NCBI GenBank assembly: GCA_002269645.1
Contig: NIVC01003126.1
Location: forward strand, 26,235 to 90,234
Length of the DNA: 64,000 bases
From: Macrostomum lignano
Lineage: Eukaryota
Direction: 5' to 3'
Positions 23,564-23,776 of this stretch are shown in pieces (the first letter of the stretch is position 1; the number at the start of each line of letters is the position of its first letter). Both the position numbers and the translations under genes were made by a program. The notes under the pieces are model-generated. The model was given only the letters and a program-made list of their open reading frames with translations. It was not told the origin of the DNA and did not search any database.

Positions 23564-23776
23564 CTAACAATAGGCGCACTGCCGCAAGCTACTTCTACCT
23601 ATCGGGCAATTCTGCCAGAGCTGAATATAATGTGAGTCGCTTAAATATTGTCTGCATATGCGATGTCTGTTTTCACAAATAATTGGTGGCTTGACAGCCA
23701 AGTCATCAGTTAAACATATTGGGCATTCGTAGAGTTGCTGTAGTTGGGGCGCCTGTTTGGACAGTGCGTTGCCCAT
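23564..23776 (-). CDS. Small accessory ORF (70 aa): N-myristoylation motif plus degenerate RING finger
   Basis: From ATG 23776: MGNALSKQ...ECPIC-x12-CENRHRICRQY-x12-CPIG...CAYC. The spacing fits C-x2-C...C-x3-H-x2-C-x2-(C)...C-x2-(C). The two missing Cys are TAT and GGT, each one base from TGT. Confidence 0.7.
   Translation of the reverse strand: MGNALSKQAPQLQQLYECPICLTDDLAVKPPIICENRHRICRQYLSDSHYIQLWQNCPIGRSSLRQCAYC

Follow-up and report, generated by a model that had tools for sequence, protein, structure and literature searches.

A truncated RING reading frame behind pol in a Macrostomum lignano Ty3/gypsy element and its full-length tandem-RING relatives

The window, a 64,000-nucleotide stretch of Macrostomum lignano contig NIVC01003126.1, carries on its minus strand an LTR retrotransposon. 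Comparison of its ends delimits a 5′ LTR at 32165–33235 and a 3′ LTR at 22275–23345, each 1071 nt long with TG...CA termini; the two differ at 2 of 1071 positions, which points to a recent spread of the window's subfamily, and a TGG 2 nt past the 5′ LTR marks the primer site. A single open reading frame between them (23888–31375, minus strand), assigned by domain search, encodes a 2495-aa polyprotein in the order gag (CCHC at residues 236–251), acidic linker, first hydrophobic segment (TM1), envelope-like domain, second hydrophobic segment (TM2), protease, reverse transcriptase, RNase H, and integrase. The TG...CA LTRs, the order from protease to integrase, the CCHC motif in Gag, and the GPY/F tail of the integrase are features of Ty3/gypsy elements (Metaviridae), and named records that share 93% identity with the polyprotein, or that include the sister RING gene, bear the label M. 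lignano. The element sits in a GA-rich microsatellite (21900–22274 and 33236–33500); tandem repeats likewise border other copies (loci L002, L047, and L110), a possible target preference. Elsewhere in the window are an intact 548-aa ORF that by eye resembles a piggyBac-type transposase (17535–19181, minus strand), exons of a host gene, upstream of the element, for a Gfo/Idh/MocA-like oxidoreductase, by eye inositol dehydrogenase-like (14454–14885 and 16594–16923, plus strand), and a 287-nt inverted repeat at 35724–36477, 94% complementary with 180 nt between its arms and possibly a MITE or foldback element.

TM1, or an internal signal, was recognized by eye at residues ~619–633 (29477–29521, minus strand, as for all polyprotein features here); it is followed by a 555-aa ectodomain at residues 646–1200 (27776–29440) and, again by eye, by TM2 at residues ~1214–1235 (27671–27736). 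Between TM2 and the protease, residues 1285–1302 (27470–27523) hold YPSI, PTAP, and PPIY, which resemble late-domain motifs; in the alignment, YPxI occurs in all three rows, PTAP in two of three (out of register), and PPxY in one of three. The ectodomain is conserved at 63–98% across subfamilies and matches the Pfam family Monjiviricetes_fusion at E 2.1e-4 (19.8 bits, under the 27-bit cut-off), with top Atlas scores of 0.89–0.90 to class III fusogens; its single-sequence model was unusable (pLDDT 32), and no PDB sequence matched. As a lead, then, it may be class III fusogen-like, of the chuvirus/rhabdovirus class. No relatives of the ectodomain were found in the metagenome or viral contigs searched, the only outside ones being the proteins P0152, P0153, and P0163, the last of which has the same Gag–envelope fusion and is 56% identical over the matched part. 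This apparent envelope inside Gag-Pol, which the original prediction had passed over together with the two hydrophobic segments, is with the RNA motif described below among the more surprising finds at the locus, and adjoins the question of the RING gene.

Downstream of pol, a 70-aa ATG-initiated ORF beginning MGNALS occupies positions 23776–23564 of the minus strand, between pol and the 3′ LTR as the original prediction placed it, 111 nt from the pol stop and ~220 nt short of the 3′ LTR; read on the plus strand, the same interval is closed. Its SIAH-like C-x2-C...C-x3-H-x2-C spacing and the two non-cysteine ligand positions, 44 and 60, were likewise borne out. What had been called a micro-protein is instead the N-terminal third (23564–23776, from the ORF list and the copy alignment) of a tandem-RING gene of 222 aa, here named R1, ended by an early stop directly past residue 70. 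Similarity to the longer R1 frame persists beyond this stop to about codon 87 (23513–23563, minus strand, in the alignment of copies), past which the window DNA has no alignable counterpart in the R1 genes of sister elements. Ligands 8 and 6 of the first finger are missing, and the second finger is cut past its first pair of ligands; the terminal CAYC, once proposed as a source of spare ligands, is that first pair, with which the second finger of the full-length proteins starts. On its own, the 70-mer reached Sina_RING at E 0.98, under every Pfam cut-off. No R2 match, R2 being the paralogue that follows R1 in sister elements, is listed at the window locus among the 151 found by an own-genome search with R2.

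A six-frame search of the same genome (G000) with the 70-aa ORF returned 107 matches from 114 candidates, which fall into identity bands between 100% and ~41%. The best 30 of the 107 were aligned, comprising 21 copies of the window's subfamily (A) and nine of a second subfamily (B). Cysteine stands at both positions 44 and 60 in all nine aligned subfamily-B copies, a check that the original prediction had singled out, and their frame continues past residue 70, reaching 124 aa at L023 and 81 aa at L022. Over codons 1–70, L002 and L023, compared by hand, show ~20 synonymous against ~16 non-synonymous differences, indicating purifying selection on R1 before its decay in the window's subfamily; with rough site numbers, we estimate by hand a dN/dS near 0.2 between the subfamilies. 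The frame is no product of chance, as these matches and this synonymous excess show, and the part of the original prediction that derived the ORF from a selected RING-type accessory gene is upheld. A host-gene origin was rejected for the clustered matches L031, L034, and L038, which are nested or duplicated pieces of the element with pol ends or the RNA motif described below, and an exon-wise search identified no intron-containing host parent of R1 among the matches listed.

Copies elsewhere in the genome show a variety of rearrangements. Subfamilies recombine: L036 is a mosaic in which subfamily-A pol is joined to a different R1/R2 cassette (4994–9900). At L043 (3879–6905), several near-identical, internally deleted copies keep both RING genes with most of pol gone, as non-autonomous carriers. 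Nested or duplicated clusters, some repeating the unit of motif, R1, and R2, occur at L031, L033–L035, and L038 (G000 C87, C1130, C2121, and C272), and may be piRNA-cluster-like or duplicated regions. By eye, a mariner-type transposase is inserted in the R1 gene at L039 (6462–7522), and a tyrosine-recombinase (DIRS-like) element is nested in another copy at L038 (4813–5904 and 8373–9901).

The gene from which the window ORF derives is preserved in sister subfamilies of the same Ty3/gypsy family. In the layout drawn from 20 stretches of the lower identity bands, with ORF lists examined for 14, R1 measures 216–222 aa and consists of a tandem pair of C3HC4 RING fingers with a helical domain behind them; it is followed by one or two paralogues, R2 and R3, of 198–212 aa each. 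R1 frames in these stretches are 144, 216, or 222 aa long, and together with the shorter copies they form a truncation series of 70, 81, 124, 144, and 222 aa. Across 15 natural R1, R2, and R3 proteins, which are 20–96% identical to the first, each of the 16 ligand positions is either invariant or conserved to 90% or more, and both fingers keep the C-x3-H spacing. The C-P-x-C-R sequence that ends finger 1 is invariant in the 15, and a second alignment that includes outside relatives retains P58 and R61 in 11 of 11 proteins; finger 2 lacks the conserved arginine past its last cysteine. The C-terminal domain bears a W-P motif in the 15-protein alignment, and the paralogues have diverged strongly from one another. 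Nine of ten full-length proteins matched Pfam RING families at E ≤ 0.1, one above the cut-off and most below. The structure model of the full protein (pLDDT 87, pTM 0.78) has an all-helical C-terminal domain. Foldseek listed almost exclusively RING proteins and viral RING E3s, none at E ≤ 0.001, and VIA aligned finger 1 with RNF146 (Z 4.4, rmsd 2.2 over 48 residues), barely covering finger 2; the best VIA Z, 4.8, lies in the range of common arrangements. From the model and the RNF146 alignment, a RING fold is predicted for the full-length protein, with modest scores; the helical domain had no clear fold match in VIA and no usable Atlas hit.

Outside the M. lignano assembly, a protein search of 1.84 billion representatives gave 190 matches at E ≤ 0.001. 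P0001 is the host's own gene model; P0002–P0004 cover the whole architecture from outside the assembly (E 1e-34 to 1e-40), P0005 and P0016 cover parts of it, and most of the remaining matches comprise one finger only. No scored G000 copy is more than 42% identical to P0002 over the length of that protein, so that the tandem-RING family extends beyond the M. lignano assembly. A word-index search with the R1/R2 alignment passed none of 1569 candidates. We found no description of a tandem-RING cassette in the literature within reach, which excluded subscription papers, figures, and Repbase, and novelty is not established; as far as their accessible text goes, the main text of PMC12801592 has no mention of an envelope, RING, zinc, or an additional ORF—its supplements may list the family—and PMC4604429 holds nothing on this element.

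The spacer between pol and R1 contains a second conserved feature, a 75-nt pseudoknotted RNA motif at 23800–23874 (minus strand), defined by alignment and covariance. It is built of a 4-bp stem with a loop that base-pairs to a strand further downstream (an H-type pseudoknot), an A-rich linker, a helix that we call X, and an invariant 4-bp hairpin. About 75 nt of the 111-nt spacer are conserved, between variable flanks, across subfamilies whose R1 proteins are only 39–40% identical, a conservation to be read in the light of subfamily recombination, which can homogenise the spacer. In 12 element rows, 96.7% of cells in the stem, pseudoknot, and two hairpins are paired, and the pseudoknot helix shows compensatory change at two positions. 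The pattern occurs in 49 of 50 G000 loci, and its 3′ 20-mer gave 103 matches against one for a reversed control, the listed places that were compared lying shortly 5′ of R1 matches. The same 20-mer matched 54 metagenome and two viral stretches, and a model built from the element rows alone found 45 full-length motifs in 43 of these 56 outside loci, inspection by eye agreeing; 13 of its 58 matches covered the 3′ hairpin only and were set aside. In the outside sequences, all seven pseudoknot pairs covary (60 cells; 0 of 500 shuffles), in an alignment fitted to the model and from loci pre-selected through the 20-mer. Helix X, which closes the 3′ domain, covaries at five of five pairs with 64% of cells paired, and is degenerate in the window's subfamily. 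Minimum-free-energy folding of the spacer was not unusual (z −0.37), pseudoknots being outside that folding model. The records L069, L077, L090, L097, L101–L104, and L055 share the 3′ hairpin 20-mer only, several with other conserved upstream sequence, and are possibly a second RNA family that uses the same module.

Among the 11 outside motif loci whose sequence context was examined, the settings are diverse. The motif lies directly 5′ of the ORF in an APE-type non-LTR element and in a second non-LTR element that encodes a reverse transcriptase (L068 and L082); directly past an RNA-dependent RNA polymerase, where the RNA-virus record ends ~120 nt away and no ORF follows (L106); between genes in a 212-kb record of a large DNA virus (L105); in a bacterial contig (L054); and in tandem with a 74-nt period (L095). 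Five further loci had no informative ORF. The copy at L106 means that the motif is not always a translation leader.

We consider it fairly probable that this RNA, a candidate ribozyme, is self-cleaving. Rfam models of known self-cleaving ribozymes—HDV-like, twister, hammerhead, pistol, and hatchet, from which divergent members can escape—found none on the stretch taken from the window (E ≤ 5), on 20 of the 56 outside loci (gathering score), or on L068 (E ≤ 10), so that the case for catalysis is drawn from the distribution of the motif. Nor could its helix order be mapped to known ribozyme classes, or the catalytic cores of these be placed on it, and a search with a 15-mer from the motif found no description in the literature, subscription papers, figures, and Repbase being beyond its reach; about half of the probability that we give to cleavage falls on an undescribed class. 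To our knowledge, only small self-cleaving ribozymes, among RNA classes, span bacteria, viruses, tandem arrays, and retroelements. HDV-like and twister ribozymes are reported to have such a distribution, and to release retroelement RNAs so that the ORF behind them can be translated (PMC6765202 and PMC8501958, in the portions available); in this sense the motif shows the pattern of a self-cleaving ribozyme. The chief alternative, possible but clearly the less favoured, is that the motif is a nuclease-blocking, xrRNA-like fold, an IRES-like element, or a splice or trans-splice signal, with R1 and R2 expressed by splicing. Non-catalytic RNAs commonly use an H-type pseudoknot with an A-rich linker as a module, the R1 start is preceded by a branch-point-like CTAA and by an AG, and R2 at L046 follows CTAAC, a pyrimidine tract, and CAG directly 5′ of its ATG (7880–7939, a candidate splice or trans-splice acceptor), the same CTAAC..CAG point at which the public gene model P0001 joins R2 exons. 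Against this alternative stand copies in a bacterial contig, in 74-nt arrays, in a large DNA virus, and behind a viral polymerase.

Under the preferred, catalytic reading, R1 would be translated from a subgenomic RNA that arises through a cut in the genomic transcript at the motif, or through some other opening there; self-cleavage would be followed by cap-independent initiation at R1, as is reported for ribozymes placed 5′-terminally in non-LTR elements. Readthrough of the pol stop into R1 was rejected: spacers range from 105 to 146 nt and are in frame in three of six types, and those three contain in-frame stops. In four presumed-RNA read runs, 30 of 30 bins were covered, and no joint of a leader to the ORF appeared among the 15 joints listed of 28, a result that bears on expression neither way.

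For the proteins, we lean towards a reading in which the longer relatives of the R1 remnant are accessory ubiquitin-ligase genes, and hold the full explanation, RNA-driven expression included, to be somewhat better than an even bet. R1 and R2 would act as element-encoded ligases whose finger 1 recruits an E2, while finger 2 and the helical domain would choose a substrate in the host, such as a factor of silencing or restriction; an N-terminal myristoylation signal, gained in one clade, would move the ligase to membranes. The cassette would be dispensable in cis, with shortened subfamilies spreading without it or borrowing it in trans. The arginine that ends finger 1 occupies the place of the E2–ubiquitin 'linchpin' of active RINGs, and the invariance of P-x-C-R in this finger down to 20% identity therefore points to E2–ubiquitin activation. 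The E3 ligase named as a candidate role in the original prediction is accordingly one that we retain as the likelier function, now for full-length relatives with conserved ligands. RINGs can also be non-catalytic scaffolds, and the tandem fingers might instead serve as a decoy or adaptor that sequesters host E2 or E3 enzymes, holds a zinc scaffold, or regulates the element's RNA or transcription. We rate this at around one chance in several: finger 2 is without the conserved arginine, the paralogues are strongly diverged, and nuclear accessory ORFs of unclear role are described for MDG1 elements (in the available part of 10.1101/2025.03.14.642691), but an invariant P-x-C-R is not what a decoy would lead one to expect.

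The window ORF itself we infer to be a non-functional or weakly functional remnant, from which nothing more than a truncated peptide bearing part of a finger would be made. Its 70 codons are open in 20 of the 21 aligned subfamily-A copies (the remaining one has a 1-nt deletion), and the early stop is common to all 21, as might be expected if the product were itself functional, a selected myristoylated mini-protein. These copies are 94–100% identical, however, so that open frames are expected through youth alone, and ligand loss runs as a decay series—ligand 8 in 21 of 21 copies, ligand 6 in 15 of 21, and ligand 7 in one further copy pair—which makes such a mini-protein improbable.

The original prediction had also likened the ORF, by analogy, to the arenavirus Z matrix protein, supplying membrane targeting through Gly2 to a Gag that has none. 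The window copy and its clade have Gly2, which occurs in three of eight full-length R1 rows, none of seven R2/R3 rows, and none of four outside relatives. Two R1 types of 73% identity both keep G2-N3-A4-x-S6 amid neighbouring residues that change, which makes myristoylation plausible in the Gly2 clade; the motif is not family-wide, most lineages being without the glycine. Gag does start without a myristoylation site, as predicted, yet is not without a membrane anchor, since TM1 follows it in the same chain. Lineages without Gly2 have the same Gag start and envelope domain, and one such type, in the 47% identity band of the own-genome search, has near-identical copies, which suggests insertion activity without Gly2. 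No C-terminal PTAP or PPxY was seen by eye in the 15 aligned R1, R2, and R3 rows, and Z is not among the fold-search matches listed, whose rows are generic RING proteins, an absence that by itself does not tell against kinship with Z. It would thus seem to be the polyprotein that holds the signals for membrane targeting and budding. A Z-like matrix—a myristoylated RING protein lining the membrane and driving the budding of a Gag without a matrix domain, to which the retained G2-N3-A4-x-S6, the Gag start, and the envelope-like gene would be congenial—would have been surprising, and we regard it as the least probable reading of all, given a minority Gly2 despite shared Gag start and envelope, two membrane segments, a fusogen-like domain, and late-domain-like motifs past TM2 in the polyprotein, a full protein of 200–222 aa with two fingers, and the amplification of young subfamilies with truncated R1 frames (21 of 21 aligned; LTRs 2 of 1071 nt apart).

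If the ligase reading is right, retrotransposon RING ligases would represent, for invertebrate LTR elements, a counter-defence gene of the kind carried by complex viruses. The host is a laboratory model with RNAi and transgenesis, and since its genome holds a series from full cassette to remnant, the benefit of accessory genes to an element can be tested there. Should the motif cleave, it would either found a ribozyme class of its own or stand far out within an existing one, and the translation of genes that lie past pol in an LTR element would have an explanation. A broader picture, which we put forward tentatively, is of a flatworm endogenous virus lineage with a genome plan new in kind, which combines a class III fusogen inside Gag-Pol with an anti-defence tandem-RING cassette expressed from a subgenomic RNA that an undescribed cross-domain ribozyme releases.

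The proteins invite comparison with several RING families. Viral RING E3s, among them poxvirus p28, baculovirus IE2/PE38, ICP0, and giant-virus RINGs, share with them, as do SIAH-type RINGs, the C3HC4 ligands with C-x3-H spacing; like the genes described here, they are accessory genes of a virus-like element, and fold-search rows are of that kind. The present family differs from viral E3s in its directly tandem fingers, unmatched helical domain, two to three paralogues, and LTR-retrotransposon carrier. In SIAH/Sina proteins, zinc fingers and a beta-sandwich domain that binds the substrate come after the RING, whereas here no hit to that domain was obtained, the C-terminal domain is all-helical, and Sina_RING hits stay below the cut-off. 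Arenavirus Z, a protein of ~90–100 aa that has a single RING and carries late domains itself, shares with one R1 clade the succession of Gly2 motif and RING; R1 has instead 200–222 aa and two fingers, a Gly2 limited to that clade, and late-domain-like motifs placed in the polyprotein.

Other parallels concern the RNA and the layout of the element. HDV-like ribozymes (of R2, L1Tc, and RTE) and twister variants (of Perere-3) are, like the motif, compact pseudoknotted RNAs 5′ of retroelement ORFs, found across domains (PMC6765202 and PMC8501958, as far as available); the present motif differs from them in having no Rfam match and in its place, the spacer that separates pol from an accessory gene of an LTR element. 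LTR elements with captured viral fusion genes are on record, as in errantiviruses with a baculovirus-type env (PMC12440569, in part) and in Anakin with a chuvirus glycoprotein (PMC7642597, in part). In errantiviruses, env is a separate third ORF past pol and of the baculovirus F type, whereas the envelope-like domain here is in frame between Gag and protease, its lead being to the chuvirus/rhabdovirus class, and RING genes occupy the 3′ slot. MDG1 elements, in the available part of 10.1101/2025.03.14.642691, likewise carry extra selected ORFs besides gag and pol, but their sORF1 and sORF2 lie upstream of gag and are not RING proteins, whereas in this flatworm family the additional genes encode RINGs and follow pol.
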